Virus record (IMG/VR): IMGVR_UViG_3300028829_006673
Source: a virus
Length of the DNA: 64,000 nt
Strand: one strand, 5' to 3'
This document shows, piece after piece, positions 32,754 to 52,115 of this stretch. How positions within the stretch are numbered: position 1 is the stretch's first letter; the number at the start of each line of letters is the position of its first letter. Below the pieces are notes generated by a model, which searched no databases, was not told the DNA's origin, and saw nothing but the letters and a program-made list of their open reading frames with translations. The position numbers were made by a program, and so were the translations under genes.

Positions 32754-33700
32754 TGGAAAAAATTCAGGTATTCACGCCTTATACAGAAGCTAATCATCAT
32801 GCTTTACCTTTATTCGGTCATCCTTACATAAAAGCAGAATGGCTTCCTTCTTATCCAGGTGTGATTGAATTTTGCAAAAAACATTTTAGTTATGGACTTA
32901 CAACAGATTCAATCATGTTTTTTGCCGGACCTGTTGGTCATAAAGAATATATTATGGGTAATGATAGTCACGATATACTTATGCAATACTTAGGTGAAAG
33001 AAAGATATATGCTTTTACCTATAATACTCTTGACCGTAAATATCCAGATGATGATGTTGGTGGTGATGATTTTTATTATGAAGATTTGATTTCTTATCAA
33101 ACTTCAATGTATAAATCGGACAAAAGAAAAAATCAATATCCACTTCCTTGTTTCATGATAGACAAATTTGAAGGAAATTATTACTTAGGACCAAAAAGTA
33201 TTTTCTGGAGGGGTAATAATAATTTTGGACGATTACTACCGCTGACGGTAATTGAATCGACAAAATATAAAAAAGATTTCACAATTACAAAAATAGATGA
33301 TGCTTTTCTTGATGAAGATAAAAGAATATTTTTAACAGAAATGACAAATAATTTATTTTGTTTTTGTATTCGTGGAGGAGCAAATTTTTGTCGTAGATTT
33401 TATGAAACAATTATGATGGGAAGAATACCTATTTTATTTCAGAGTGACCGTTGTTTTATTTTTGAGAATTATGGAGTTAAGTTAGAAGATATGGGAGTAG
33501 TTTTAGAATATGAAGAAGCCACGTTTGATCCAAATATATTCGACAAAGAAAAGTTAGTTAAAGAATTTGAAGATCAAATTGATTCTTGGATTATATCACA
33601 TAACTTAGATCATGTTCAAAGATATAATCGTCATATCTGGGAAACATACTGTTCTCCTTTAGGATTTCTAAAAACCTTTTATAACTCATTGGAAAAATAA
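32753..33700 (+). CDS. Exostosin-like glycosyltransferase (GT47)
   Basis: FCFCIRGGANFCRRFYETIMMGRIPILFQSD matches the GT47 signature FxLxPRGxGxxSxRxYExLxxGxIPV; TAATG overlaps at both ends. Confidence 0.75.
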   Translation: MEKIQVFTPYTEANHHALPLFGHPYIKAEWLPSYPGVIEFCKKHFSYGLTTDSIMFFAGPVGHKEYIMGNDSHDILMQYLGERKIYAFTYNTLDRKYPDDDVGGDDFYYEDLISYQTSMYKSDKRKNQYPLPCFMIDKFEGNYYLGPKSIFWRGNNNFGRLLPLTVIESTKYKKDFTITKIDDAFLDEDKRIFLTEMTNNLFCFCIRGGANFCRRFYETIMMGRIPILFQSDRCFIFENYGVKLEDMGVVLEYEEATFDPNIFDKEKLVKEFEDQIDSWIISHNLDHVQRYNRHIWETYCSPLGFLKTFYNSLEK

Positions 33701-36700
33701 TGGCAGTTACGGCTTCTATAGTTATTACAGGTGCTACTTGGAATGCCTCCGGTTCAGTTTATGTAGTTGATGATCCTACAGTAGGAGTATCAATAACTGT
33801 TAGTTTTAGTGGAATAGAAGGAGGAAGTGAAGGTGATGCTATGGGAAGGGCGGGGACAGAAAATTTCGTAGTAAACAGAGCATCGGACAACAAACAGATA
33901 GTTAAAGTTAACTCAGCAACTTACCAGTATGTTTTACCAGGTACAGACAAATATAAATTTCGACCAGGAGTACAAACCACACACGATGGATGGAGACAGG
34001 GTAATTGGACATCGTACTATACAAATTCACCACCTGATTCAATACCACCTACAATTTCAGGACCAAGTTATTCTGCTAGCGATGTTGCAGTAGTAGGTTC
34101 AGACCTTTATTGTAAAACTAGTTCAATCACAGTTACTTACACGGGATCTGATACTGGAGGTTCAAGTCTTGCTGGAATTTCGATTGATGGTGGTTCATTA
34201 CAATCAAGTCCAGCATCAAAAACATATACAGTAACAGGAGACTTTACAACTACAGCATACGCAAAAGATGGTGCGGGAAATCAGTCAGGATCAGTTTCGA
34301 AAGCTTTCAAAAAAGATAACATAGCGCCTACTATTGATATAGATTGTACAGTATCATCATCGGTACCAACCGGAGCTAGTTATAATGAAGTTACAGATTC
34401 TGCTGGGGCTATTCGTATCACAATTAATGATACAATGTCTGGTCCAAAAGAATTCGAGTATACTCATAAATTATATGAAATAGGTTCGGATGGTCTTTCA
34501 CTAGGCTCTGAAAATGCAAGTTCACCTAAAGTTCCTTGGACTGTACATACAGGTAATACATTAGATATTCCACTTGATCCTGACTATTTGAACTTGGTTG
34601 AAGTTCGAAATGCAAAGGATATGGCTGGTAATCCATCAGCTGGAACTGCTCAGTCACTCTACTATATGGTGGTACAATCAAGCCCTCCAATGCCTACGGT
34701 ACTACCTCCCGCAGTTACGATAAATGCTGGCTGTGCTGGTGGTAATGATTTTTGGATATATGGTCCACCAAACACACCCACAACTGGCTATGTTCATTTT
34801 CAAGATTTACTTGTTTCACCAAAATTTAAGCAAAAAATTCAATCAATATATGGTTTATCGGCCAGTGATGTAGGTCCTTTTGTTGATAAACTTTTAGATT
34901 GGCCATCATGGATTACAAGTGCGGACAGACGTAATGATACAGGATTACATTCTGGATTAGGCGCTGGTGATTATCCTAATTTGGGTCCTGGTGAAAATCA
35001 GGCAACAATGCCTCCTTCAAGACCATTTGACTGGACCTCAATTGGTTGGGGCGGACGACCATGGCTTAATTTAGATGTTTATGGAGGTCCTATCGTCACA
35101 ACTTTTAACGATGGAAAACATAGTAATTTTGATGCGATTGGTATGGGTGGAGGTCCAGGATCAGCACCATGTTCATCAAATAAACGTGCTGATTATAATT
35201 CTGGTTGGTATTCAGGTCTTTATGGGCGTGGTGCGAATGGTTCAAGACAATTTACTGCTGTTTGGTTAGGAACAAAAAATAATTCTACATATATGCCTGG
35301 TCCTGTTCAAGACCATATGTATCAATATGGTCATATGTGGGGCTACAGCACTCATGGTGGTTGGTGGTCTGGAAAAAGTGGTATTCGTGGTCGTGGTCAT
35401 GATTGGGATGGTAACACAAGTCATGCTCACCGCAGAAGAGATGATTTTATTATCGAAGCTATACATGCTTGGAGTCCAGGAACAACATATCCTAGCTTTG
35501 CTGGACATGGTTTAGCTAATGGACCATGTGGGTTTGATCGATGGCTTATTCAGATGGGAATTGATCCTGTTCCCGGTCAACCAGGATACTTTAAACTACT
35601 TGATTGTGTTCCACCTACAATACATAAGTTAGATGCTAGTTCAAAACTTGTTACTGCTGGAAATGGTAAAAGATATTATATCGATTATCCATTGACAAAT
35701 CATGTTTGTCACTTTAAAGTAAATGCTGAAGATAATGAGTATGGTTTAGATTATGCTGTTTTCACAAAATACAAAAAAACTTTAGGTGATTCTAGTTTTA
35801 CAGTAGATGGTGTTCCTGAAACAATAAACTTTGCGGGAGAACAAGATCTAAAAGTCAATTCAGCTTCCGTTATGATTGATACGCAAGGTATGGAAGAAGT
35901 TTATGTTGATGTAGAAGTTTTTGATAAAGGTGGTAATTCAACAACAGAAACAATGTCAGCCCAAGTTATTTCCATTGATGATGCGGATCCTCAGGGTGGA
36001 CCTGGTTGGTCTGGTAGTGGTGCTACAACAACTGGACCCACCACTAATATTCAAACACCAGGACTTCGTTTAGAAAACATACCATATATGGTTGGATCAA
36101 AGCCATATTGGAATTCAAAAGAAGTTGATATTTTCATTGAATATGGTGATGAATATTCTGGTATTGCTGAAGCTAAATTGTATATCAATGGCTCTCATGA
36201 ATCTACGGTCACATTACCACCTACACAAACGGCTATTCTACATGCTCAAATACACCATATTTCAAATAGCAATCTACGAGAAGGTATCAACAATTGTCAA
36301 TTGTGGCTAAAAGATTTGGCTACAAATGAATGGTGGTCTGCAACTTTAGACTTTTATATTGACATGACAGATCCGGATGCTTATCTGGAATTTTCTTCAC
36401 CTCAACTGACAATACGAGAAAATAATGGTAAACTCTGGACAAAAGAAAATAATTTAAATGTTGATTTATATTATGGTGATCCAGGACCTGATCCTTCAAC
36501 AGTTGATGCGGGAGCAACAGATGTAAACAATATACCATCAAACCTAAATATGCCTCTATCTGGTAATCAAAAGATGGGACATAATCAAGGTGGGTTGACT
36601 GTAGGTAAGAATGATATCTATTTCAGTGTAAAAGATAAAGTAGAGTGGGAAGAGGATGGCGCCGGAAGCGGTCCTATGACTACTGATAAAATTACAGTTT

Positions 36701-36843
36701 GGGTTGACCAAACGAAACCAACTGGGTCAATTGTAAGAAATTCAGGGCAGTATGTTAACTTATATGGTGGCCTTGAATACACAAATACAACAAATTTTAA
36801 TGTTGACTTAACACATGATGATTCAGAATCAGGATTATTTTAA
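33700..36843 (+). CDS. Ig-like repeat virion/adhesin protein (part 1 of chain A); ends mid-domain
   Basis: Repeated DxxxP...D..SG...D.AGN units; G/W/H-rich insert; terminates at DDSESGLF. Confidence 0.75.
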   Translation: MAVTASIVITGATWNASGSVYVVDDPTVGVSITVSFSGIEGGSEGDAMGRAGTENFVVNRASDNKQIVKVNSATYQYVLPGTDKYKFRPGVQTTHDGWRQGNWTSYYTNSPPDSIPPTISGPSYSASDVAVVGSDLYCKTSSITVTYTGSDTGGSSLAGISIDGGSLQSSPASKTYTVTGDFTTTAYAKDGAGNQSGSVSKAFKKDNIAPTIDIDCTVSSSVPTGASYNEVTDSAGAIRITINDTMSGPKEFEYTHKLYEIGSDGLSLGSENASSPKVPWTVHTGNTLDIPLDPDYLNLVEVRNAKDMAGNPSAGTAQSLYYMVVQSSPPMPTVLPPAVTINAGCAGGNDFWIYGPPNTPTTGYVHFQDLLVSPKFKQKIQSIYGLSASDVGPFVDKLLDWPSWITSADRRNDTGLHSGLGAGDYPNLGPGENQATMPPSRPFDWTSIGWGGRPWLNLDVYGGPIVTTFNDGKHSNFDAIGMGGGPGSAPCSSNKRADYNSGWYSGLYGRGANGSRQFTAVWLGTKNNSTYMPGPVQDHMYQYGHMWGYSTHGGWWSGKSGIRGRGHDWDGNTSHAHRRRDDFIIEAIHAWSPGTTYPSFAGHGLANGPCGFDRWLIQMGIDPVPGQPGYFKLLDCVPPTIHKLDASSKLVTAGNGKRYYIDYPLTNHVCHFKVNAEDNEYGLDYAVFTKYKKTLGDSSFTVDGVPETINFAGEQDLKVNSASVMIDTQGMEEVYVDVEVFDKGGNSTTETMSAQVISIDDADPQGGPGWSGSGATTTGPTTNIQTPGLRLENIPYMVGSKPYWNSKEVDIFIEYGDEYSGIAEAKLYINGSHESTVTLPPTQTAILHAQIHHISNSNLREGINNCQLWLKDLATNEWWSATLDFYIDMTDPDAYLEFSSPQLTIRENNGKLWTKENNLNVDLYYGDPGPDPSTVDAGATDVNNIPSNLNMPLSGNQKMGHNQGGLTVGKNDIYFSVKDKVEWEEDGAGSGPMTTDKITVWVDQTKPTGSIVRNSGQYVNLYGGLEYTNTTNFNVDLTHDDSESGLF

Positions 36844-36869
36844 TGCCAGCTAAATTTTTAAGGATTTAA

Positions 36870-39800
36870 ATGAGTTTTTTTGATACATGGAAAGCTAGTT
36901 ATTTTCCAGGAATAGATTCAACTTATGTATATGAAAATATATTTGCTACCACCAAAAATGCCATTTACTGGGTGGCAGAAGGTTTGGAAGAAGCGGGCTC
37001 AAAGTTTTTTGTTCCTCCTAATGATCCTCGTGGGATGTATGCTACTCCTGCCGGACCTCATGGTGAGATAAAATGGCAAGTTCAAACTAATAGAATTTGG
37101 ATAGACTTCACGGGAATGCCATATCATGATTTCGGCAATAGTGATCCAAGAAATGAATATTCTATAACCGAAGTTATCTATGGGGGTCCTGCTTTATTTG
37201 GTGAAGCACCTCTTAGATTTTTTCCATGGGGAATAGTCGGTGGTAGTGGTATTGGATCTCCCTTTGACGAAGTTTGGACGGAATTTAATCCAGCAGCAGG
37301 TGGTTCTATTGAAAATCCAATGCATCGACGGAAAGCTATTTATCCTCGCTCTTCAACGCCTCACGGGATGGACTTTGATGAATCTGGTCAGATTCCATTA
37401 GTACGATTTAACCGGGAAGCTACACACACATTTGATCATGGAAGTCATAAAACGTATGATTTTACGGCAACCGTATCTCAACCAAAATCAGTAGGAACAA
37501 TATACATTTTTGATGGTGCTTCAGATTATACTCCTACTCATACTATTCCCAATGTCAACTTATCTGACCTTACTCCTGGAAAAACTTTCACTGCTGGTGG
37601 TAAAACTTATACTTTAGGTAATGCAAGATACCATTATGAACTGAATGAAATTCTTGGTTCAAATGTTTTAAACAGTAATAATACTTATGCAGCTGGTTGG
37701 TTTGGACCGTTTGTTACACAACCTGTAGTACTTGCGGGTTATGAGATGAAGGTTGGTGGATCATCACCAGTTACACCATCAGGCCCTTATACTCCAATAG
37801 CAAGACCTAATCCATGTTGGGTTATAGAGTCAACACCACCAAGTGAGCAGATTTTTGGGAAATGTATAAATGATTTTTCTCCCGAAGAAGTGTCATCATC
37901 ATCAAAACAAGCTCACTGTCTAGTGACAGGTTCTGTCATGGGGTTAAAGATAAAGAGAATTTATGATGATTTTTTTAACTCATCAGATGCTTTTATTGAC
38001 GCATGGAATACTGCAGGTGGTTATTTTCCACTCGACGCAGGATATTCAAATGGAGATCAACTTGTTATTGTAGCTACCAACCATATTCAACAAGGACCTG
38101 TAAGAGTTTCTGTTGATATTTCAGGGGTAATGGTAGGAATAGTTTGGGATGATGGAACAAAAATAGGCGATATACCTATAGTAAAAGATGCGGCTATGAA
38201 TGGTATAACTGTCAGTATTATGACATACACTTGTCCTGGATCCCCAGGACCTTCACCTGGACCTTCACCTGGACCATCACCAGTAACACCTTCAGTAGTT
38301 CCATCAGCTACACAATCTCCAGCACCTTCTGTTAGTCCTGTAGGTCCAATTGCTCAACCTTCACCCGCCTCTTATCTCACAAGCGGTGGGTCTATCTTAT
38401 TACTACATTCAGATCAAAATCCACCAACATGCACTACTCCTACACCAGCAAATTTCTTTAATAATGGATTGGCAGCTTCGGGTACATCTAGGATGAATCA
38501 TGTCTTTTCGGCAGATATGCTTTCAAGTGTTGTATTGACAAATAATTCATACAATACAATCTTTTATTATCTAATGGATGCTGCACAGAATATTGAATAT
38601 CTAGGTTCAGTTACTTTCTATGTGGATCGTGATAAACCCATAGGTGGAATTACACATCCAAAGGGAGCAAATTGGCTTCCTCCATATACAGCAGAATGGT
38701 TAGGAAAAAATAAACCAGCACCATTTGATGGATCAATTAATGCTTGTGATGAACCTTCAACTGGTGGAGGAACAAATACAAATGTTCTTTATCCTCCACC
38801 AGCACCTGTTCCAACTTATGCGATCTCAGCTACGACAAATCATCCAAATCCTTTACATAACAATCTCATTCATGAAGGTTCTTTAGTTGCTACATTTAAC
38901 ATTACGACAACTGATGTGCCGGATGGTACTACATTATATTGGACTTCAGATAGTCCAACACATGCGCCCGCTTTAGTAAATGATTTTACCGATAATGCTC
39001 TTCAGGGTCCCGTCACAATTATTGGAAATAGTGCAGTAATTACAAGACAAGCCAAGGCGGATAATTTGACAGAAGGTTCTGAAGTGTTTCGACTTCATCT
39101 AAGAGTTGACAGTGTAACTGGATATATTGTAGCTACTTCAAATTATATTGGTATTTCAGATACTTCAAAAACAATATTACCACCACCACCCACTTATGCG
39201 ATTTCAGTAACAACAGATAAACCTGGGTATAATAAATCACTAAGTGAAGGAAGTTATAAAGCAACTTTTGTAGTGACCACAACTGATGTACCTGATGGAA
39301 CTATTCTTTATTGGAAAACATATACTTCATCAGCAGGTTTAACAAATGCTCAGGATTTTGCAGATAATGCTCTTCAAGGAACAGTCGTAATTAATGGAAA
39401 CTCAGGAACTATAATTCGTGAAGCTGTGGCAGATTCGATAACAGAAGGGCCGGAATCATTCCGCATAGATATTCATATAGACAGTTACACTGGTTTAATT
39501 GTTGCTCAGTCAGATTGGATTGGTATTGAGGATACTTCACAGACAGCACCTCCTCCACCACCGCCTACTTATTATATAGCAGGGGCTACGACACATAGTA
39601 CATATCCAAACACTGTAGTTGATGAAGCAACTGAGGCGTCTATCAGTTATACTGTAACAACAACAAATGTTCCTGATGGTACAATTTTATATTGGACTCA
39701 TGAACCTCGTGTTAATGCTCCTCAACCAGCAGACTTTAAAGATGGTATGGATCATGGCTCTGTCACAATCTCTGGTAATTCAGGTATTATCACAAGACAA

Positions 39801-39923
39801 ATTTTTGCTGATAATACTTTAGAAGGGCCAGAAGTTTTAAGATTAGAGTTAAGAACGGTCAGTGTTACCGGGTCAATCGTAGCAAGGTCAAACTTTATTG
39901 GTATTGCAGATACGTCATCATAA
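36870..39923 (+). CDS. Mosaic adhesin: unknown domain, PS-rich linker, partial Ig units, 3x Calx-beta-like domains (part 2 of chain A)
   Basis: SD AAGGA; (GPSP)n linker; TIFYYLMDAAQNI...VDRDKP; three ~120-aa repeats TTTDVPDGTxLYWT...TEGxExF. Confidence 0.75.
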   Translation: MSFFDTWKASYFPGIDSTYVYENIFATTKNAIYWVAEGLEEAGSKFFVPPNDPRGMYATPAGPHGEIKWQVQTNRIWIDFTGMPYHDFGNSDPRNEYSITEVIYGGPALFGEAPLRFFPWGIVGGSGIGSPFDEVWTEFNPAAGGSIENPMHRRKAIYPRSSTPHGMDFDESGQIPLVRFNREATHTFDHGSHKTYDFTATVSQPKSVGTIYIFDGASDYTPTHTIPNVNLSDLTPGKTFTAGGKTYTLGNARYHYELNEILGSNVLNSNNTYAAGWFGPFVTQPVVLAGYEMKVGGSSPVTPSGPYTPIARPNPCWVIESTPPSEQIFGKCINDFSPEEVSSSSKQAHCLVTGSVMGLKIKRIYDDFFNSSDAFIDAWNTAGGYFPLDAGYSNGDQLVIVATNHIQQGPVRVSVDISGVMVGIVWDDGTKIGDIPIVKDAAMNGITVSIMTYTCPGSPGPSPGPSPGPSPVTPSVVPSATQSPAPSVSPVGPIAQPSPASYLTSGGSILLLHSDQNPPTCTTPTPANFFNNGLAASGTSRMNHVFSADMLSSVVLTNNSYNTIFYYLMDAAQNIEYLGSVTFYVDRDKPIGGITHPKGANWLPPYTAEWLGKNKPAPFDGSINACDEPSTGGGTNTNVLYPPPAPVPTYAISATTNHPNPLHNNLIHEGSLVATFNITTTDVPDGTTLYWTSDSPTHAPALVNDFTDNALQGPVTIIGNSAVITRQAKADNLTEGSEVFRLHLRVDSVTGYIVATSNYIGISDTSKTILPPPPTYAISVTTDKPGYNKSLSEGSYKATFVVTTTDVPDGTILYWKTYTSSAGLTNAQDFADNALQGTVVINGNSGTIIREAVADSITEGPESFRIDIHIDSYTGLIVAQSDWIGIEDTSQTAPPPPPPTYYIAGATTHSTYPNTVVDEATEASISYTVTTTNVPDGTILYWTHEPRVNAPQPADFKDGMDHGSVTISGNSGIITRQIFADNTLEGPEVLRLELRTVSVTGSIVARSNFIGIADTSS
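38238..38283 (+). repeat. 12-bp tandem repeat (GGACCTTCACCT)n encoding GPSP
   Basis: ggatccccaggaccttcacctggaccttcacctggaccatcacca visible in the sequence. Confidence 0.85.
38792..39920 (+). repeat. Three tandem ~375-bp coding repeats (Calx-beta-like), each led by a poly-Pro linker
   Basis: PPPxPTYAI...TTTDVPDGT.LYW...DF.D....G.V.I.GNS..I.R...AD...EG.E.FR...IVA.S..IGI.DTS occurs three times. Confidence 0.9.
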
Positions 39924-39940
39924 GTTAGAAAGTAAAAAAT

Positions 39941-42900
39941 ATGCCACCAGCACCTTCACCTCCACCACCTCCACCTCCACCGACTCCACCGACTCCACCA
40001 TCTGGAGGATCAGGTAATGTTGGTGGAGGTGTTGGTGGAAATCCAAGAGGTTCGGGAATTTATCAAGAATGGTTTTACTACACACCACAGAGTACAGAAC
40101 CCGCACCTGTTTGGAGAGAAATAACAGATACTCAATGTATTACAATTGACCTTTCATCAAGGGGTGCTATCGCTGCAGATAATGATGCCCCTATCGGTCA
40201 AGAACCAAAAGATAGACCGAGTGATAGTTTTACCGCTCCCGATTCATATTTTCTTTATGCTCGGTTTATGGATAAATCAAAAAATATATCTGATTTATAC
40301 AATACATCCTTCAAGATTGATAATTTTGATCCATACACAATTGAAAGACCCCCTGGCAATCTCTTGCGAATCAACGCAGGAGGTCATGTCAAACCTGCTA
40401 AAATTTTGGATGATGAAATCTATGTCTTTCAAACAGTAACAGATGATCATTCTGGTGTTGTTTATTATACTCATGAAGTAAATGCTGGTAATTGGACGAA
40501 AGAAGTTCTTTCAACTGCTTATGTCAGTACTAAAGCAGCACCAGATAATGAGTATATGATTGATGAGTTAATTACAATTGGTAGTACACCGGGTGAATAT
40601 GAAGTAAAAATTCGTCCATATGACCAAGCTGAAAATTACGATGAAAATAAATTCACTGTTATAAGGTCAAGTCAAAGTATTATATGGCATAGTCTTTCAG
40701 GCGCTCGTTCAACCACATCTCCTTTTATTGTAGAAGGAACAATGAAAGTTGAAATCACGGGTTCTCCTGAATTGATTGCTGGATTTTACTGTACAACAGA
40801 TTTATATTTTCATCCACCAGATTCTTATTTCAACACATCTCATGCGACTCATCGCATATATGATATACCATTCACAATAATGGTGCCCGATATGGGCGTT
40901 GAACGAGCAATCATGCATATCTTCACAGACGGCTCACCGCATCGCTCCTACTCTCAAAAAGATTTTACATGGTCTAACTCAGGAAATCCAACATCCGGTG
41001 GTGGCGGCAACGGTAACATCTCCAGCGTAGATCCTCCGATAGTTGAAATCAAAGAAGCTACTCAGAGAGTATATACAAATTCATTGACAAACAATTGGGG
41101 AATTTTTGGAGATTCTGGTGCTATACATGTGAATGGTGGAAAAGACCGTATCACTGGATATATTGTAAATGAAAGTTCAGCAAGTCCGGGAACATCACCT
41201 GTCTATAATACAGCCACACAAAAGTTTGAAGATGCTGCTTCGATTGGTTGGAATTTATATGATACTGGTGCTGAAACATTTACTGAAGTTGAGAATTATA
41301 CATTTACGAATACTTCATATGGTTCAAAAACAATTTATCTTCATGTAGCTACACATTCTTATAATGGAACTGTTAACATTTCAGGTTCACCACAAACTCA
41401 AACATTTTCAGATTCATATACAATTGAATATATTGATGATCGAATTGGTCCTTGGATCACAGTCCTGAATACAACTGAAGATGATACAAGTATTACAGCG
41501 GCGGCTTCAAAAATGAATAGTTATGCTGATAGTTTATATAATCCAATTGAAGTCTTTAAAAGAATTGAAGTTCTCTCCACAGATAATATCTCAATGAGTG
41601 GAACTTTAACAGACAATGAAAGTCGTATCAAACGATACACAATTGGTACATATGGTTCACCTCCACCATATACAGAGTTAAATCCTGGACAATGGACTGT
41701 TCTATCAACACCAGCACCCACAACTAATTTTACATTTTCATCAACTCTAACACCACCAAATTCAATTAAGACCTTCTATATTTGGGCTGTTGATATTGTT
41801 GGTAATATATCAAAAACATTAGTTCAGTTTGAATTATATAATCCAAATTATATTGTTCCAACTATTGGTGCCGCAGGACAGGGTATTCCTTATAAGTTTG
41901 AAGGTAAACCAGATGAGCATCCTAATCGTGAATCAATTGCTTCAATGTTTGGTGATGGAACATTCCATACTGGAATGATTTCAAATCAAACTCCAAAAGT
42001 AAAAGCAAATCGTATTCATAAATTAAGTGAATATCGTGGATTGCGTGTAGCAAATACAGCAAATAATGATAGCTATGAATTTTTACCAAGTGCTGCAGAT
42101 CCGGCAAATCCACAAGCTCCTGGTGGTGAACCCATCAAGTTCTCAGATTTCCTTAACAAAAAACCAAGAATTGATGACATGGCAGTTGTGCCAACTGTAA
42201 TACCTCATAATGTTCAACATCCTTCAGAACCACTGTATGTTGGTGATATACGAAATATTTCACTCACAATGGATATTGATACAGGTAATGATCCTACTCC
42301 ATGGAAACTAGCAAATGATAATGTAGTGGATGATGATGCTACATGGAGTGCAGTCTTCATAGCACCAAACGCACCATCACAAGTTTCAATACCATTATCT
42401 GCTCCGGTCAATGGTGTGATTCAAAACTATACTTTTGCGAATGAAGGAACATATATCTTTACTGGACTGTCATCGTTTGGAGAAACTGCGGGTAAAGTAT
42501 TCATTATACTTCCTGCCGGTACACCAGTTCCACCCACGCAAGGTCCACCAATTAATGTTGTTGTTCCTATTACAACAGATCCCGCTGGTAAAACACCAGT
42601 GACAATTGATTACTTTATTGACCAAGTTGGTATCGGACTCGATGCCGCTATAGCAATTGACCGTTCAGGAAGTTATGTAAGTGACGATCCTTCTTATGAT
42701 GATTTTGCTGGAGCATTACTCGATTCACTTACAACAAATCAAAAAGTTCGTGTATTGCTCATTGAAAATGCTGTAACACCAAACCCTGATTATCCTAAGA
42801 ATCCTAGCGACCGATGGGCAGTAATCGCAATCTTTGAAAATATAGCGGGCGGTAGTGAAAAAACATCACTCATTGAAGCATTCCCTAATATGAAATACTT

Positions 42901-44089: not shown

Positions 44090-44157
44090 AATAGAATAAC
44101 TAAATATGATTATAAAATCTTCTCAAAAAATCTATAAAAACATTTGAATAAAAAACT

Positions 44158-47100
44158 ATGGCAATTATTGGTAGCCTTTCTTTAAATAATACAGTGGTGT
44201 TGAATACAGCACCGCTCACGTATCAAGTTTGGTTGAATCTTGTTTGTTCATCAACAACAACTGAAATTACATCACTTGATGTTTATAATGATGGTATTTT
44301 AGCAGATACAATTAATATTCCCGTAACAACTCCACCAACAACTATATTGGGTAATGCGGTTACTCCTCATTTGGTTGGTGTCACAGCATCTGCTACAGGT
44401 TGGCATACTTATGAAGTAAATGTAAAAAATTCTTCCTTAGAATCTCGCAGATTTTCAGTTACTGTATATCTTGATTTATCAAGTCCTATTGTAAATGACT
44501 TTTCAATCAAGCAGATTTCAAAAAGTGGTGGTGATTATATTATTGAATTTGACATGGATATAGATGATGATTCTGGTATTTCAAAAATTATATTACATAA
44601 TGATACTAACGGTGATTCTTCAGTACAAACAATTCCAGTAGGTCTTACGAATTTTGTTGGTTCTCAGTCAATTCGTATGCCGAATATTCCATTTAATAAT
44701 AATACAACAAAAAACTTTTATATTGAAGTTCATGATTATTCTGGTAATTCAGTTGATAGTGCTTTGCTTCCAATTTATTTCACAGATCTTCCTCCATCAA
44801 TTAATAGTTTTAACATTACATCAATCTCTCAAACAGCAACTCATTATCAAATTGATACTCAGATCGTAGCTTCATTTACAGCACTACAACAATTGACACA
44901 ATATTCAGTCACATTTGAAAATCCAGCAGCAGATTGGGAAACACTTATTTCAGCAGTTTCACCAACAACAATTAATAAAACTCTGTTTGTACCAAAAACA
45001 GAACCTGCTGGTGTAAAAACTTTGACAGCATATGTTCAAGACAATTATCTCAATCAATCCTCGGCAGCAACAGTTTCATTTGATTTAGATAAATTACAGC
45101 CACTTGGTAATATTAATATGGATTTTGCTGAGAAGATTGGTTCTAATTACTATGCTAATTTACATTTCACTGCAACTGATGCTGGAAAAATAGCAGCCTA
45201 TTCATATAGCTTAGTTGGAGCATCTGCTCTTACTACATGGAATTCAGTCACGCCGACAACAAATTTTAGTTTAAAGAAGACTTTAAATTTAGGATCGTCT
45301 GGATCTTCAATGATTTATGTCAAGTATCGTGACTTTTCAGGAAATGAATCTCCTGTGTATCAAGAATTTATGGAGATTGATACATCACCACCTTCATGTA
45401 GTTTTTCATTTTCTCATGGTAAGCAAAGACCAGACCTTGATTATGAGGCATATTTTGATTTGATTGGTCAAGATATGAATCCTGGAGGAGCAATCAAGTT
45501 TATTCGTTTCTTTGGTGAAAATGCTAATACGGGTAATCTTGTTTCGGGTCATTCAAACAGTTGGGTTCAAGTCACAGAAACTCAAAACTTGATTGAACAA
45601 AGACCTTTGTTAATTCCCCAAACAGAACATGAAGATCCTATCGATTTTTATTATCAAGTAAGAGATCGCTTTGGAAATGAAAGCACGCCTGTAAATGTTC
45701 AAAGAGTACAATTTGATAAAACTTCTCCATCAATTAATACGTTCTCATATGTAGATGTTACAAAAGGAGCTACAGATTATCGTGTATTCACAGAGTTTGA
45801 GGCGGTTGATAATTTTGGTATAGCAGCATTTCGATATGCTTTTGACAATATAACTTTAGCACCGTGGATAGCTACAACAAGTACAACTCATCTTATACAG
45901 CAAATTTATCTTGATGTACCTGTAACTGACTTAAATGTTCCTAAAACTTTTATAGTTCAAGTAAGGGATGCTTTTGGTAATGAAAGTTTAGATTCAATAC
46001 TACCAGTTAACGTCAATGACGTTCCTCCGTCTGGTTCAATCAGTTTTGCTGGAGGCGCTCTTACAGCAACTGATTATATAATGACATTTCAATTAGATGC
46101 AATGGATCCTGATCCAACAGACAATGTATATTGGTATTCTCTTGAAGTTGATGATGTCACAATTATAAATTGGAAGCCATTTACAAATGCTAATAGTGTT
46201 GTTTCAGAGACAGTAAATTTATTATTACCCAGAACAAGTACCGGTCGGCATGATTTTTATGTGAGATATGCTGACAAATATAAAAATGAAAGTCCTGTAT
46301 ATAACATTCAATATGACCTTGACGCAATTTCAACAGTAGGTGGTCTTGATTTAGTCAATGTAGAAAAAACTGGACCTTCTTATACAGCAAATGTTGCTTT
46401 GTTTGCCGTTGATAATCGTAAAGTTCAATCTTATATAATTGAAGAAAGTGTAACAGCCACACCCACAGAATATGCAATTGTTCCTCCTGTTCAAATTTTT
46501 GATGAAAATGTTTTAATTCCAATTGGCTCAACTGCGGGATCAAGATGGGTGAAAGTTCAATACAAAGATAACTTTGATAATCTTTCAAATACATATCAAA
46601 TTGATTTTGATTTAGACACTACTTCACCAAACGCAAACATTTATTTTGCAAGTTCAACATCAAATCTGACACACATGTTCTTTAATTTTGATTTGAACAT
46701 GACAGATAATCATCAATTATATGAATACAAATTTTGGTCTTCAGAAGTTATTGAACCCACTGACTGGACAAGAATACCAAGAGCAAATACAGTAAGTATA
46801 AACACAACATTTTCAATACCAAAAGGAACAACAAATCCAGGTTTTTTCTGGAAAGTAAAAGATTTCTTTGGTAATGAATTTTATGATTCTGAAATCAAAA
46901 CAATTACTACAATGCCGCCCTCTTCAAAAATGGAAATAAGCTCGATAGTTTACAATCTGGGTGGAATAAATGTAGGTGTTGATTATGAATTACTTGCTTA
47001 TCCTGGCTCTGCTGTTGATAAATTTTTGATTGATGTAAACATGGGTATGGATTCATTTGAAATTGATGTATCACCTAATCAAGTAAATCCTACAGGAACC

Positions 47101-50100
47101 TTTCATTATAATTTCCCACTGTCTACCACCTTTGCGAGATTTGATTGTTTTGGTACTTCCGATTATGGCTATCAAAATGTTGTTGCGAATACAGTAACTA
47201 CACTCTTTGATAGTGTTGTGCCTGTGGTAACTACCGCTACCTTCTTGGGTAGTTATGGTGATATGACAGATTATATTTTACAATTCCGTGTTGCTGGTCA
47301 TGATACAGGAAGTGGGCTTCGCAAGGTCAGAGTAAGTATTCCGACCACGTCGGATGTTGTCTATGCGATGCCTTTGACAAATATTATGGATGAAGTAATC
47401 AATGTTCGTGTTCCTGGAACATTTGCTGGGAATATGGTTTCACCTACAATATATCTTGAAGACTTATTAGGAAATCAGTCAGTTGGAAATACAATACCAA
47501 ATATTTTCTTAGATGGTTCAGGACCAACAATTGCCAATTTGGTTGTCAATTTTAATAAAACTTATCCTTCAAGTTCATTTCCAGTTCCACCAATTGGATC
47601 AAATACAAAGTTTATTGATGTTTCTTGGGATGCTTCAGATTTTTCAGAAATCACACATTATTATTATTCAAGAAATGTAACTGAACCATTTAATCATCTT
47701 ACATGGAAGCCAGTAACTCCAAATCGTAAAAGAGTTGATGTAACTGAAACGATCAATCTAGACACTATTGGTATACCAGAAGGTTTAGGTGGATTTTTTG
47801 TTCACACTAAAGATCGATTTGATAATATAAGTACTGCTGGTGTATCTTTTGAATACGATAAAACACCACCTACAATCAATACATCATTTTTAAATCGTAT
47901 TGAAAGAGCCAATATTGCTGGTATAGATCACTTTGTAGTACCTTATCAAGTAACCTATAATGATAATTATTCTTCAATTGTAAAGAGAGTTGATCGGCAT
48001 CAAATTGGAGGAGTTTGGTCATCTGCTAATGTTGTCAATTTTAATCCAGATGTAATTACAAATACAAGTATTGAAAGATATGCTATACCTGTTGATTATC
48101 ATGGGTTTACAACGATTAATACAGCAGTCATGGACCGCTTTGAAAATCTATCAGCAAGTGACAGTTTTCAAGTATTCTTAGAAAACCAGCCACCTGTAAT
48201 CAATTATACAACATTAAATGCTGGTGCTGCTTATACTACAAATAAAAATGTTCTTCTTCGTGTTGATATGTTAGATGACCGTGGTGTGACTGAATATCAC
48301 GTATCAAATACAGCAAATGTATTTTGGGATTCACCTGGCTGGGCAACAATTCCTTTGTCTCCAGCAACATCAATCACATCTACATTTAGCATTGATTTAG
48401 AAGCAATTGGATTTGACCAAGGAACTTGTAATGTGTATACACATATTAAAGATTTCTGTCAAAATATTTCAAACAATATTTCAACAATCATTTATGATTA
48501 TGAACCACCTGAAGTAGTCAGTTTTAAAATTGAAAAGTTTGTAAGAACACCTTCAACTTTTGATATTACTCTCAACGCAATTTGTTATGATGTTACTTCA
48601 GGACTTCACGATTATTATATTTCTCAGAGTAGCATTGAAACAACTTTCAATCCAGTACCAGGAGCACCTGTTATTGGTAATTCAGTGAATACTACAACTT
48701 TCAGTGAAATACAACAAGTTTCTGTTCGTGATTCAGGTTGGAAATTTTTCTACTTTGAAGCTCATGATGCTGCAGGAAATCTTTCGCTAAAAGCAAATAC
48801 AAAAATGTACATTGATACGTTAGCACCGATTGCGAGTGTATTTGAACCAATTGATGGACCAACAAAATATTATCTATCACCAGCAAATTCAACATTTAGC
48901 TATCAAGTAGCAGATGATTTTGCCTTAGCCGGTCTTGGTTGGCAATTTGATGGTGCTCCACCAACTATGTTTGCTTCATATCCTGCGCCAATCGGTTTGA
49001 ATCCAGGAACACTTACTGATGTTGGAACATTTAATGCTGTAAATCTTAACACATTGACCGATGGTGAACATACAATTTACTTAGTAATTGTTGATCAAAT
49101 GAGTAATCGTGTTGCAGTTCCTTATGATTTCTATTTTGATGGTACTGCTCCTACAATTAATCGTTTTGAAATTATTGAAACAATTGCTACTTCAACACCA
49201 GGTACTGACTTCAAGGTAGAATTTGTTGTTGACATTGAAGATTATGCTGGCATTTCTCATTATAATATTCTTGACAATGGTATTTTAGCAGCAACTGTTC
49301 CTGTCAATAAAAAAGACCTAGACGCAACACCGACAATTGATGTCTCACTCACCACTCTTTTCCCACCTTCGGGAATGGATATGCAGTATATGGTGTTAGA
49401 AGACATGTATGGTTTGAAGAGAACAGATTGTCTTGTAATTGTTCATGGTTATGATGGCTCAGCCTCATCTCAAGATAAGATTGTTGCTTTAGCAAGTGCT
49501 AAGTCTGGTGTGCCAATTTCAAAGCTAACATTCACGCATTTAGGACAATCAACAGGGATTGCTGACCCAACTGATATTAATTACTGGCATCGTGATTCAG
49601 TAAAACATCGGGCTGGAACTCATACACTTCAATCTCAAATTACGAGTTGGGATCCTGCTGCTATAACAGTTCCAACACCTTATGATATTATTCAAATTGA
49701 TTCCGTTCTCGATGAACACACTGAGAGTGAGTTTGCTGTATACTTAAGAAATCATCCAACAACTACAATATTTACAGATCCAATCAACACAACAAATGAA
49801 TGGAGTAATGTCTTTCTTTCTCCAATGTATGCAAATGCTTCGTCAACTTCTGAAGTTCATGTCTTCACACTCCAAGCTTTTGATTACGCTGGTAATATGC
49901 AAGAGCAAGAAATACATCAATTATTTCATGATGGAACGGCTCTTACAATTAACAATTATCTTGTGAGTGGCTTACCATCAGTTCTTCGCAACTCATACAC
50001 ATCTGAAATATTTACAGCAAACCTTGAATCACCTGTTAAGATTATTCAAACTGCTTTGACAATTCAAGATAGTAGTGTTGTTGACTTTTACAGTCCGTTC

Positions 50101-50367
50101 TGGGAAGATATAGCAACACCGTCACAAATTATTTTGTTTACAGATACAAAATCAATCAATCAATTTGCTTTGACAGATACTTCACCAAACAATAAAGTTT
50201 ATCTTCATGTCAAAGATGCCTGTGGACATATGACTTCAAGTGTTGTTGATGTAAATGTTGCTGTGAATAATCCTGCGGTCAAGAATGTTTCTTCTCCAAT
50301 TAATTTAACGAGAGAGGGTCATTATTATGTGGGAACAATTACTTTTGATGTAGAAACAAAACCATAA
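44158..50367 (+). CDS. Giant Ig-like repeat protein (2069 aa, roughly 18-20 units; part 1 of chain B); ends mid-domain
   Basis: ~100-aa repeats DxxPP.I..F...D..GI..Y....W........V.D.FGNxS throughout; stops at TITFDVETKP. Confidence 0.85.
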   Translation: MAIIGSLSLNNTVVLNTAPLTYQVWLNLVCSSTTTEITSLDVYNDGILADTINIPVTTPPTTILGNAVTPHLVGVTASATGWHTYEVNVKNSSLESRRFSVTVYLDLSSPIVNDFSIKQISKSGGDYIIEFDMDIDDDSGISKIILHNDTNGDSSVQTIPVGLTNFVGSQSIRMPNIPFNNNTTKNFYIEVHDYSGNSVDSALLPIYFTDLPPSINSFNITSISQTATHYQIDTQIVASFTALQQLTQYSVTFENPAADWETLISAVSPTTINKTLFVPKTEPAGVKTLTAYVQDNYLNQSSAATVSFDLDKLQPLGNINMDFAEKIGSNYYANLHFTATDAGKIAAYSYSLVGASALTTWNSVTPTTNFSLKKTLNLGSSGSSMIYVKYRDFSGNESPVYQEFMEIDTSPPSCSFSFSHGKQRPDLDYEAYFDLIGQDMNPGGAIKFIRFFGENANTGNLVSGHSNSWVQVTETQNLIEQRPLLIPQTEHEDPIDFYYQVRDRFGNESTPVNVQRVQFDKTSPSINTFSYVDVTKGATDYRVFTEFEAVDNFGIAAFRYAFDNITLAPWIATTSTTHLIQQIYLDVPVTDLNVPKTFIVQVRDAFGNESLDSILPVNVNDVPPSGSISFAGGALTATDYIMTFQLDAMDPDPTDNVYWYSLEVDDVTIINWKPFTNANSVVSETVNLLLPRTSTGRHDFYVRYADKYKNESPVYNIQYDLDAISTVGGLDLVNVEKTGPSYTANVALFAVDNRKVQSYIIEESVTATPTEYAIVPPVQIFDENVLIPIGSTAGSRWVKVQYKDNFDNLSNTYQIDFDLDTTSPNANIYFASSTSNLTHMFFNFDLNMTDNHQLYEYKFWSSEVIEPTDWTRIPRANTVSINTTFSIPKGTTNPGFFWKVKDFFGNEFYDSEIKTITTMPPSSKMEISSIVYNLGGINVGVDYELLAYPGSAVDKFLIDVNMGMDSFEIDVSPNQVNPTGTFHYNFPLSTTFARFDCFGTSDYGYQNVVANTVTTLFDSVVPVVTTATFLGSYGDMTDYILQFRVAGHDTGSGLRKVRVSIPTTSDVVYAMPLTNIMDEVINVRVPGTFAGNMVSPTIYLEDLLGNQSVGNTIPNIFLDGSGPTIANLVVNFNKTYPSSSFPVPPIGSNTKFIDVSWDASDFSEITHYYYSRNVTEPFNHLTWKPVTPNRKRVDVTETINLDTIGIPEGLGGFFVHTKDRFDNISTAGVSFEYDKTPPTINTSFLNRIERANIAGIDHFVVPYQVTYNDNYSSIVKRVDRHQIGGVWSSANVVNFNPDVITNTSIERYAIPVDYHGFTTINTAVMDRFENLSASDSFQVFLENQPPVINYTTLNAGAAYTTNKNVLLRVDMLDDRGVTEYHVSNTANVFWDSPGWATIPLSPATSITSTFSIDLEAIGFDQGTCNVYTHIKDFCQNISNNISTIIYDYEPPEVVSFKIEKFVRTPSTFDITLNAICYDVTSGLHDYYISQSSIETTFNPVPGAPVIGNSVNTTTFSEIQQVSVRDSGWKFFYFEAHDAAGNLSLKANTKMYIDTLAPIASVFEPIDGPTKYYLSPANSTFSYQVADDFALAGLGWQFDGAPPTMFASYPAPIGLNPGTLTDVGTFNAVNLNTLTDGEHTIYLVIVDQMSNRVAVPYDFYFDGTAPTINRFEIIETIATSTPGTDFKVEFVVDIEDYAGISHYNILDNGILAATVPVNKKDLDATPTIDVSLTTLFPPSGMDMQYMVLEDMYGLKRTDCLVIVHGYDGSASSQDKIVALASAKSGVPISKLTFTHLGQSTGIADPTDINYWHRDSVKHRAGTHTLQSQITSWDPAAITVPTPYDIIQIDSVLDEHTESEFAVYLRNHPTTTIFTDPINTTNEWSNVFLSPMYANASSTSEVHVFTLQAFDYAGNMQEQEIHQLFHDGTALTINNYLVSGLPSVLRNSYTSEIFTANLESPVKIIQTALTIQDSSVVDFYSPFWEDIATPSQIILFTDTKSINQFALTDTSPNNKVYLHVKDACGHMTSSVVDVNVAVNNPAVKNVSSPINLTREGHYYVGTITFDVETKP

Positions 50368-50384
50368 GGAATAAGGAATAAAGA

Positions 50385-52115
50385 ATGGCAGCACCAAATA
50401 TTGTTAACATTCATTTTTACTATAGTGGTGGTTCTGCTCTAGATAAAAATGGATTACTTGATGATGTTACTCCAACTTATCAAGCTCCGTACGATCCTGC
50501 TAAAGCTGCGATCTTTTTACTTGAATTCGACACAGCGTTAGATGATACAGCAATTAATGCCTTGACGGGTTCTACACCGCCTATTGGTATTTTAGATGAC
50601 ACTCAAGTAAATCTCACCGGCTCATCTTTCATGACTGCTGTTTCTGGAGCAGGTTATGGTATGAACTGGTGGAAACATTATGATGACGTACATAATTTTA
50701 CGCCATCTAGTTCTGGAGCTTTTAGTGGTTCAGGGCCTATAAATTCAGCGCTTAACTCTAATCTTTCAGGTTCAGTTCCAATGAACCACTGTATGTATGT
50801 TGCGGTTCCTGCGGGCATACTCACAGCAGGTCATCGATATTTGATTTGGTATATAGGAGACTATATTACGGCTGGAGGAACAATGATGACTCGGCACTCA
50901 GGTGCTGGGGCGCCTCTAAGTGCTAGAACGTCAGCAGGTCCAGGTCACACAGAATTGCGTCTAAAAATGATGGCAGGTGTTGACGCCACAGCACCTACAA
51001 TAGTCTCATTTACACCAGCAAATGCTGCTACAAATGTGCCTGTAAATACACCGATTACAATTACTTTTGACGAAGAACTTGATCCTGCGACAACAACAGG
51101 AAATTGGACACCTTACCCCGAAAGCATTACATATTCTTCAAAAGTAATTACGGTCACTCCATCAAGTCCTCTTCCGGGAACAACAACGATTAATGTTACA
51201 GCGCCTGCTGGTATTACAGACACATCAGGAAACGCTTTAATTTTACCAGTAACTTGGTCATTTACGACTGCAGCACCACCAGACACTCGAGTTCCAATTG
51301 AAGCATATGCTTATGGATTCAGTATTGATCCTGATCAATTCAAATCAATTCCTCTTACAAAAAGTGGATCAATTGATATAGATTTTAAAATCCCTGCTGA
51401 TGATATTGATGGTTCAAAAATTATGTATTTGAGATTGAGAGATGAAAATGGTTTGATTTCACCAAACTATCGTATTTCTCTTCGTGTAAATGATGTTGAA
51501 TTTAAAACATTCGAAATTGATTCAGATCCATATCTAATTGGTTCTGTAAACAATGTTGATGTTCGTTTTGATATTGATGATACTGATGTTTCTGGATTTC
51601 AATATGGTTACCTAGTTGATGATTCTTCTGAACCGACAACCTGGGCATCACCTGTAATCACTACGAATTCGATTAATGAATACTTGTTTAATTTCAACTT
51701 AGATGTTTCTGCTCTCATAGCCGGTGAGCATGAACTTTATGTTTGGGTAAAAACAAAGGAAGGTGAAAAGCGATTTCGAAAGATTAATTTTGTAAGTGAA
51801 CCTGCGATTGCTCCTCCTTATGGCACATTAGGAATCAAGCGTTCAGTGATTGAAGATGGTAAGAAAAAGGTTTGGGTAGAAGCAAATGTCTTTGATGATG
51901 GTGTTGGTGTTAAAGAATTGAGTTTAGAAGATACTGCCTATCCAGACAATTTAGTTAATATAAATATAATACAAAATAAAAGATATTTAAAGATATTTGA
52001 ATATGACGCCCTTGATAATAGTTTAAGAACTTATAAATTAATTCTTGTTGACGCCATTGGAACTTATAATGCGACTCCGATCACAACCACAGTGGATTTA
52101 TCAAGTGTATTCTGA
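50385..52115 (+). CDS. Protein with unknown N-terminal domain, SbsA/Big_5-like Ig domain and C-terminal repeats of the chain B family
   Basis: DATAPTIVSFTPANAATNVPVNTPITITFDEELDP...WSFTT (Big_5-like); the last ~275 aa continue the repeat family of 44158..50367. Confidence 0.8.
   Translation: MAAPNIVNIHFYYSGGSALDKNGLLDDVTPTYQAPYDPAKAAIFLLEFDTALDDTAINALTGSTPPIGILDDTQVNLTGSSFMTAVSGAGYGMNWWKHYDDVHNFTPSSSGAFSGSGPINSALNSNLSGSVPMNHCMYVAVPAGILTAGHRYLIWYIGDYITAGGTMMTRHSGAGAPLSARTSAGPGHTELRLKMMAGVDATAPTIVSFTPANAATNVPVNTPITITFDEELDPATTTGNWTPYPESITYSSKVITVTPSSPLPGTTTINVTAPAGITDTSGNALILPVTWSFTTAAPPDTRVPIEAYAYGFSIDPDQFKSIPLTKSGSIDIDFKIPADDIDGSKIMYLRLRDENGLISPNYRISLRVNDVEFKTFEIDSDPYLIGSVNNVDVRFDIDDTDVSGFQYGYLVDDSSEPTTWASPVITTNSINEYLFNFNLDVSALIAGEHELYVWVKTKEGEKRFRKINFVSEPAIAPPYGTLGIKRSVIEDGKKKVWVEANVFDDGVGVKELSLEDTAYPDNLVNINIIQNKRYLKIFEYDALDNSLRTYKLILVDAIGTYNATPITTTVDLSSVF

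Follow-up and report, generated by a model that had tools for sequence, protein, structure and literature searches.

The stretch of viral DNA considered here (64,000 nucleotides from the IMG/VR virus record IMGVR_UViG_3300028829_006673, referred to as the window) contains five consecutive plus-strand genes, A to E, whose products carry immunoglobulin (Ig)-like repeats, and at three of the boundaries between these genes (junction 1, A/B; junction 2, B/C; junction 3, D/E) an Ig-like domain was found to be divided between two proteins. The first two strands of the domain, the A-B hairpin, belong to the upstream protein and strands C-G to the downstream one. From the comparisons and models described below it is probable that the two halves associate by non-covalent hairpin complementation, which would rebuild the Ig-like domain and join the proteins into the chains A-B-C and D-E. 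That half-domains encoded by consecutive genes rebuild a domain in trans and so tie giant adhesins into a daisy-chain was the central proposal of an earlier note on this DNA; it is supported by fused orthologs, conserved termini, conservation profiles, shuffling of cassettes and prediction of the complex.

According to this reading, A-B-C and D-E would be two multi-protein appendages of tandem Ig-like domains, presumably carried by the virion. The proteins would be translated separately, after which the hairpin supplied by the upstream protein would insert into the incomplete five-strand sandwich (strands C-G) of the downstream protein to give a normal Ig-like domain, the rebuilt domains tying A to B, B to C and D to E. 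At the B-C loop the two chain ends would come together, so that the upstream protein could run past its hairpin and the downstream protein could start before its strand C. There, flexible Pro/Gly linkers would carry extra modules that branch off sideways from the joint and could be exchanged by recombination with the shaft undisturbed, and these cassettes may bind host surfaces.

Ig-like repeats and the three split domains

The reference for the repeat was a hidden Markov model (HMM) of the D units. It recovered 14 units in D at an i-E-value of 1e-8 or better and about 17 at looser thresholds; each unit ends with D-x-x-G-N-x-S ... D-x-x-x-P and shows a D-x-S-G-I turn about 30 residues in. Weaker copies of the repeat were recognised in A, B, C and E. 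An all-against-all BLASTP comparison of A-E showed no internal or mutual similarity, and the repeats became visible with the HMM. In the AlphaFold 2 (AF2) models the units have seven strands, and the best fold matches of the modelled repeats in the PDB are tandem-Ig adhesins. Two of the weak HMM matches, B 544-589 and E 310-369, span the second half of the model only, the E half-domain matching positions 36-101 and no others.

Protein A stops 40 residues into an Ig-like unit (...NFNVDLTHDDSESGLF-stop) and protein D 29 residues into one (...YYVGTITFDVETKP-stop), and in B the hairpin PYTAEWLGKNKPAPFDGSINACDEPST is followed by 386 amino acids (aa) of foreign repeats and a stop. Coordinates and translations were checked for the three open reading frames (ORFs) that begin at 33700, 36870 and 44158, and each does hold the first half of an Ig-like repeat before a stop or a foreign module, as the earlier note had described. 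The second halves, which it had placed inside the next gene 0.9-1.5 kb downstream, lie in B, C and E. Protein B re-enters the repeat 1.54 kb past the stop of A, behind a 455-aa module and a 49-aa Pro-rich linker; the two halves of junction 2 are 1.29 kb apart; and E re-enters 0.93 kb past D, behind a 199-aa module and a Big_5 domain. The Pro-rich linker that had been said to precede each re-entry point is marked in B and C, and E has only a short 'AAPPD'. Strands C-G of B start with SGGSILLLHSD and close with the repeat end D-x-A-x-N ... VD-x-x-x-P. Strands A-B are absent from B 505-592, C 36-128 and E 305-372 when these are compared with the repeat HMM and with the fused orthologs; the missing part consists of two strands and is located at the C-terminal end of a different, upstream protein. 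The breaks had been assigned to one and the same loop of the repeat, and they all map between strands B and C.

Fused and split forms in related phages

The relatives examined are related marine phage contigs (L-numbers) and proteins (P-numbers) from database searches, with ENA, Logan, NCBI and TARA among the sources. Uninterrupted orthologs, which it had been suggested to look for in related contigs, exist for junctions 2 and 3. Four orthologs have a continuous junction 3, namely those of L002 (2140 aa) and L005 (2346 aa), P0075 and P0076; in L002 and in L005 a single ORF is collinear with D and then with E 305-576. In the alignment, YYVGDLSFTISDDTTIVAYALG of L002 and YYIGTLNFDIDDSNYIEAYAMG of L005 stand against YYVGTITFDVETKP-stop at the end of D and ...PPDTRVPIEAYAYG in E, the stop of D and the re-entry of E both falling inside a loop of 4-5 residues of the fused domain. 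An AF2 model of the fused L002 region, of moderate quality (overall predicted local distance difference test score, pLDDT, 57; 59-84 in the split domain), shows seven strands, with the break in the four-residue loop that leads from the second long strand to the third.

The split state of junction 3 is common to the window, L001/P0073 and L012/P0074. The D-like protein of L012 ends ...LVFDIESKP-stop and is followed by a protein 60% identical to E, and the D-like proteins of the three split lineages (L001 and L012 among them) all end ...E-[T/S]-K-P. The split forms are more closely related to one another than to the fused ones, as would fit a single fission event, maintained since. An apparent fourth split at the start of P0076 was rejected: a run of N in the TARA scaffold L011, at about 1140-1150, breaks the D-like ORF. 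Such a scaffold gap mimics an extra split and calls for caution in automated surveys of splits of this kind.

Junction 2 is continuous in P0026, where the B core and the C ortholog form one chain (...PYTAEWLGPNKPSPKSGSINYSDGDSGIWQTFKKW...) and the B-type hairpin runs straight into the C-type strand C (...GSINYSDGDSGIWQTF...); P0028 too runs on from the B core into complete domains. The junction is split in the window, in L001, L002, L004 and L005 and in two TARA contigs. The continuity of the halves in these orthologs shows that at junctions 2 and 3 they are parts of one domain. Junction 1 is split in all 13 of the 13 A-like termini seen, with the same stop residue in each (...[H/K]-[D/S]-D-x-x-x-[G/L/K]-[L/F]-F-stop).

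Contig L005 (NCBI GCA_038109665.1, contig JAYNJB010000001.1, 120 kb) is labelled part of a 'Candidatus Poseidoniales archaeon' metagenome-assembled genome. It holds a T4-like fibre module in which an S74 fibre gene is followed by the orthologs of A, B, C and the fused D-E, and it is probably of phage origin and was binned together with an archaeal genome.

Cassettes and adapters

The N-terminal cassette of B is swappable: its residues 1-306 recur with 81% identity at the N-terminus of the L005 ortholog of C, where the module therefore stands at junction 2. The C-terminal cassette of B is missing in L002, P0006 and P0007, and other modules take its place in P0005 and L005. In L001 the C protein is extended at its N-terminus by 1794 aa; the extension closes with repeats like those of this cassette, which thus stand on the other, downstream side of junction 2, and behind it the Pro/Gly linker of C is internal. 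A 'Calx-beta' label considered for these repeats was rejected, no Pfam or PDB sequence match being obtained. The E cassette is missing from the fused orthologs; its N-terminal module occurs in 2-3 copies in L001/P0073 and is replaced in P0074. In L001 (16224-18671) the module is present in tandem copies, the D protein of that contig being 93% identical to that of the window, and this arrangement in L001/P0073 looks like a very recent duplication at the joint. Pfam searches with nine cassettes returned Big_5 only, and look-ups of the B and E cassettes in the ESM Atlas gave no usable match.

Forms of B with fewer modules, or none, also exist. The minimal adapter is the B ortholog of L002, which at 145 aa comprises strands C-G and the next hairpin only, without cassettes, so that the hairpin region is there the C-terminus of the protein. 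A 191-aa adapter lacking the N-terminal cassette of B occurs in two TARA contigs, preceded by an A-like end (...DDSDSGLF-stop) and followed by a C-like start. Other forms have the N-terminal module only (P0006/L004, 613-615 aa) or both N- and C-terminal modules (P0005, P0004, L005). The existence of cassette-free splits means that cassette insertion is not what splits the genes, and the idea that the cassettes had caused the splits is refuted by the 145-aa and 191-aa adapters. What stays constant is the split joint, to whose free ends the cassettes are attached as optional, mobile elements. That cassettes are plugged in at the breaks, on the other hand, holds good, as the modules vary among relatives and shift both between junctions and between the two sides of a junction.

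Whether these joints form a natural plug-and-socket system for branched virion appendages, in which the free termini would serve as grafting points for modules to be added, duplicated or moved, we regard as an evenly balanced proposition. If it is true, it would represent an undescribed principle of phage fibre assembly that would permit rapid change of host range with the shaft untouched, and it would offer a ready orthogonal set of split-Ig connectors for protein engineering.

Contigs of other samples match the window as far as 38536, 38907-38944, 39655-39695 and 50376 and then diverge. These loose ends, in or beside the B cassettes and in the D/E spacer, suggest that the population includes variants with other modules. 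Counting both strands, the 9-mer TGGTGGAGG (or its complement) is present eight times against 0.18 expected, six of the eight being in the B-C stretch (38762-41668); several copies lie in DNA coding for the Pro/Gly linkers. As a specific target duplication flanking junction 2 it was rejected, being a by-product of the linker codons. It is tempting to guess that repetitive linker-coding DNA may aid recombination and module exchange.

Conservation of the half-domains

The conservation of the half-domains was measured as identity to orthologs. The A hairpin has an identity of 0.50-0.80, compared with 0.38-0.50 for the whole protein; the C half-domain 0.38 and 0.57, compared with 0.29 and 0.45 overall; the E half-domain 0.59, compared with 0.43-0.56 for the next two domains; and the D hairpin 0.46-0.50, compared with 0.35-0.44 for the preceding 140 residues. 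In the adapter core (strands C-G of B) the identity between phages is 58-66%, compared with 33-45% for the flanking proteins of the same phages. Between the window and L001 the D hairpin shows one synonymous and one non-synonymous change in 29 codons, the two being too similar for a local ratio of non-synonymous to synonymous substitution rates (dN/dS). The earlier suggestion that the halves are kept under selection agrees with these values, the half-domains being at least as well conserved as neighbouring complete domains and their ends invariant in position; to judge from the sequences, the half-domains are not decaying.

These profiles bear on the most serious alternative, that the half-domains are relics of gene fission. 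Recombination would then have cut the ancestral genes within an Ig domain, leaving half-domains as tolerated stubs on proteins that reach the virion, or act, singly. The fibre genes of these phages are indeed highly mosaic, and joining the halves in silico barely lifts the HMM score. Stubs of this kind would however not be expected to equal or exceed complete neighbouring domains in identity, nor to end at invariant positions in proteins that are only 36-60% identical. The 145-aa adapter would be just two stubs, and yet it is the best-conserved element; in the fused relatives the distal parts are physically attached; and the prediction of the complex, described below, passes. For these reasons the explanation is considered unlikely.

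Prediction of the complex

The complex prediction was made with A 890-1047, B 488-640 and C 22-240, with B as partner and with our own shallow, unpaired alignments of 10, 8 and 5 rows. The three-chain prediction scored 0.78, and the best of three controls 0.53. This mark was reached by 58 of 80 solved complexes and by 2 of 110 mismatched pairs, counts that are rough guides here because the alignments were our own and the chains were three in number. Among the controls, that in which A and B were kept and C was replaced scored best, and about half of the contacts were retained in it; the controls with B replaced scored 0.00 and 0.06. The confident interface comprises A 1001-1047 (hairpin), B 490-597 (half-domain) and 605-629 (hairpin), and C 28-128 (half-domain). 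In the prediction the A hairpin is set on the B half and the B hairpin on the C half, which is the daisy-chain arrangement, and the model thus lends support to binding. Co-folding of the halves, as had been recommended, accordingly favours association at junctions 1 and 2, the two that the prediction covers.

The same model is informative about another way in which the half-domains could be satisfied. The B core might close up by itself into a circularly permuted Ig domain, in which strands A-B come after C-G, or half-domains might pair by domain swapping between copies of the same protein. The adapter hairpin comes about 19 residues after strands C-G and could reach back to them. Such closure would nevertheless leave the A hairpin and the C half-domain unpaired, and in P0026 and P0028 the adapter hairpin runs straight on into a strand C of its own, the order of an ordinary tandem domain. 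The prediction moreover pairs the A hairpin with the B half and the B hairpin with the C half, with the share of contacts noted above surviving replacement of C. This possibility is judged slightly less likely even than that of fission relics.

Several points weigh against hairpin complementation in trans and have to be set beside the evidence in its favour. Among the relatives no fused ortholog of junction 1 was found, and the description of its halves as one domain comes from motif alignment and prediction; of the two ancestral giant genes postulated earlier, fused forms bear witness at junctions 2 and 3 and none at junction 1. The complex score is the model's own confidence, and its margin over the best control, +0.25, is near the threshold of 0.20; the prediction covers junctions 1 and 2. 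When the halves were joined in silico, the gain against the D-repeat HMM was only 1-3 bits, true pairings could not be told from swapped ones by it, and this check, proposed in the earlier note, is not counted as support. In E folded alone the half-domain has a pLDDT of 29-51, compared with 59-84 for the same strands in the fused L002 model; the intact Big_5 domain is equally poor, so that the model does not discriminate, and the contrast may reflect alignment depth only.

Probable separate translation and integrity of the DNA

Every junction has the same layout: a TAA stop codon, a purine-rich Shine-Dalgarno-like run and an ATG-GC start, with gaps of 10-26 nucleotides between the genes. The frame offset at the junctions differs between lineages, B and C of L002 sharing one frame. 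The stop, the Shine-Dalgarno-like run and the ATG, together with a frame relation that is not conserved, argue for separate translation and against a conserved recoding signal. The second route envisaged in the earlier note, in which the RNA is spliced or bypassed to give a continuous protein, finds no support in this layout. More generally, recoding or RNA processing (readthrough, frameshift, bypass or an intron) might yield one protein with the cassette removed or skipped. The closeness of the junction genes and the common frame of B and C in L002 would favour it, but the stops are TAA, followed by the Shine-Dalgarno-like run and a start, and the offsets vary; the cassettes are open, they share the frame of the downstream protein, and they are conserved at the protein level; and their removal would require a skip of 0.9-1.5 kb. 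No intron, intein or homing-endonuclease domain was recognisable with Pfam in the window proteins and cassettes. An explanation of this type is very improbable.

The stretch was recovered nearly intact in at least 19 runs from about nine studies, and four runs of as many other studies gave contigs that cover the region without insertions or deletions, contigs of three of those runs bridging the junctions. The A/B boundary is bridged by the contig covering 36448-37808, B/C by those covering 38182-41437 and 38532-40067, and D/E by those covering 49161-50930, 49347-50440 and 49864-50504; the re-entry point of E is bridged by one covering 50488-51588. Misassembly, against which a check had been advised, is not supported by these independent contigs. 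An assembly or sequencing artefact, or pseudogenes of a defective phage, can practically be dismissed: the window is a metagenomic assembly and one extra split in a relative did prove to be a scaffold gap, but the same breaks occur in independent ENA, Logan, NCBI and TARA assemblies, the contigs of other studies are free of indels in the region, and all the ORFs are long and open.

Relation to known systems

Completion of an incomplete Ig fold with a strand from a neighbour is the polymerisation route of several pili and filaments, and donor-strand complementation or exchange is known from chaperone-usher pili, type V pili (Mfa/FimA), TasA and archaeal cannulae and threads. In those systems, as in the arrangement proposed here, the gene of an Ig-like subunit lacks part of the sandwich, and the strand of a neighbour fills the gap to give a non-covalent chain. 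The present case would differ in that two strands (the A-B hairpin) are donated instead of one, in that the donated strands come from the C-terminus of another protein, encoded upstream, giving a heteromeric chain of fixed order and not a homopolymer, and in that sister phages keep the same domains unsplit. No chaperone, usher or processing protease family was detected among the large ORFs of the window with Pfam and PHROGs.

The fibres of phage T4 (gp34-gp35-gp36-gp37) are comparable in that consecutive late genes provide successive segments of an appendage joined end to end, in that gene fusion, fission and module exchange are common among relatives of the type, and in the setting of a T4-like structural module. 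The T4 segments are however trimeric beta-structures, in contrast to the tandem Ig arrays of A-E, which are without S74; and T4 fibre segments are not known to join through a domain split between two genes. Giant adhesins with tandem Ig-like domains (SiiE, the extender regions of RTX adhesins, the GhpA grappling hook, mastigonemes) share the long arrays of beta-sandwiches of about 100 aa but are single polypeptides or homo-oligomers, and we know of no split-domain joint described for them. Engineered split Ig-like domains (SpyTag/SpyCatcher, from CnaB2) and split inteins likewise have one fold split over two polypeptides that reconstitute it; split inteins also resemble the present case in being split naturally at the level of the gene, with fused relatives extant. 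With SpyTag one strand is donated and locked by an isopeptide bond, and nothing here suggests covalent chemistry; inteins, unlike the Ig halves, splice themselves out. The literature searched, the coverage of which was partial and is not proof of novelty, contained no account of consecutive phage appendage genes that share one divided domain, nor of an Ig fold completed by a neighbour as the link between different proteins of such an appendage.

The occurrence of split and unsplit states of the same domain in sister phages is unusually direct evidence of the way in which gene fission gives rise to a joint of this kind. If the halves bind, a conserved shaft could be kept while side modules are added, duplicated and moved at fixed sockets, which would give a testable model of host-range evolution in abundant marine myoviruses, and the halves would provide small natural connector pairs for engineering, the 145-aa adapter included.

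Genomic setting and further features

The window covers a late structural region of a T4-like myovirus (PHROGs: tail sheath, portal, scaffold, major head protein and gp10-like wedge connector), with a G+C content of about 35%. The major capsid protein is about 50% identical to proteins of Methylophilales phage Melnitz and of cyanomyoviruses, and the source phage is a marine T4-like myovirus. Genes A-E are flanked by ordinary fibre genes beginning at 28338, 52323 and 55930, each with a Peptidase_S74 chaperone domain and a PHROG tail-fibre match. For A-E themselves, searches of Pfam and PHROGs gave no PHROG match and no S74 chaperone domain; the sole Pfam match above cut-off is Big_5 at E 200-295 (76 bits against a cut-off of 23.6; E-value 3.8e-21), and the best Pfam match of D, Big_3_3, stays below cut-off (19.2 bits against 27). 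Megablast and tblastn searches against 50,697 phage records found no match for the region, A or D, and neither did a peptide-pattern scan of IMG/VR give a match. The features are collected in Table 1.

Table 1. Genes A-E, the divided Ig-like domains and the associated cassettes and linkers, in positions of the window
Feature	Position	Strand	Remarks
Gene A	33700..36843	+	1047 aa; first protein of the putative A-B-C chain
Junction 1, upstream half: A hairpin, aa 1008-1047, strands A-B	36721..36843	+	40 aa, TGSIVRNSGQYVNLYGGLEYTNTTNFNVDLTHDDSESGLF-stop; ends ...HDDSESGLF
Gene B	36870..39923	+	1017 aa
B N-terminal cassette, aa 1-455, swappable	36870..38234	+	no Pfam, PHROG or Atlas match
Pro-rich linker of B, aa 456-504 (49 aa), from cassette to re-entry point	38235..38381	+	direct reading of the sequence
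Junction 1, downstream half: B strands C-G, aa 505-592	38382..38645	+	matches second half of the D-repeat HMM
Junction 2, upstream half: B hairpin, aa 593-631	38646..38762	+	...PYTAEWLGKNKPAPFDGSINACDEPST
B C-terminal cassette, three tandem repeats of ~125 aa and stop	38763..39923	+	internal repeats read from the sequence
Gene C	39941..44089	+	1382 aa
C start and Pro/Gly-rich leader, aa 1-35	39941..40045	+	direct reading of the sequence
Junction 2, downstream half: C strands C-G, aa 36-128	40046..40324	+	starts RGSGIYQEWFYY; aligned to fused P0026 and split orthologs
Rest of gene C (to aa 1382)	40325..44089	+	more Ig-like domains and C-terminal region
Gene D	44158..50367	+	2069 aa; array of ~17-19 Ig-like repeats of ~100 aa each
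Junction 3, upstream half: D hairpin, aa 2041-2069, strands A-B	50278..50367	+	VKNVSSPINLTREGHYYVGTITFDVETKP-stop; ends ...TITFDVETKP
Gene E	50385..52115	+	576 aa
E N-terminal cassette: 199-aa module, Big_5 (aa 200-295), short AAPPDTRVP re-entry	50385..51296	+	Big_5 by Pfam
Junction 3, downstream half: E strands C-G, aa 305-372	51297..51500	+	starts IEAYAYGF
Two complete terminal Ig-like domains of E (aa 373-576) and stop	51501..52115	+	AF2 model pLDDT 55-90; kept in fused orthologs

By sequence reading, the end of C and the start of D look like complete domains. The orthologs of D are 93%, 50% and 40% identical to it. In P0026, and in this C ortholog only, residues 1150-1280 give a VWA_2 match of 27.4 bits against a cut-off of 27. 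The C protein of the window (aa 881-1260, 42581-43720) has a DRSGS motif of the metal ion-dependent adhesion site (MIDAS) type near aa 907 and no Pfam match of its own. From these sequence features a von Willebrand A domain is probably present in the C family towards the C-terminus.

An ORF of 315 aa (window 32753-33700) overlaps the start codon of A and has a weak match, below the Pfam cut-off, to the glycosyltransferase family GT47 (exostosin). It is missing in L004 and L005, where the A-like gene lies directly behind the S74 fibre gene. The N-terminal part of A is variable among relatives and the C-terminal Ig-like domains are kept, the C-terminal 258 aa having eight orthologs at 56-94% identity and further orthologs in L002, L004 and L005. 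A central Gly/Trp/His-rich domain of A, about 300 aa long and not Ig-like (aa 321-650, 34660-35650), contains GWYSGLYGRGANGS and GIRGRGHDWDGN; it has no Pfam match and is kept in all A orthologs, and it could be an enzymatic or a binding domain.

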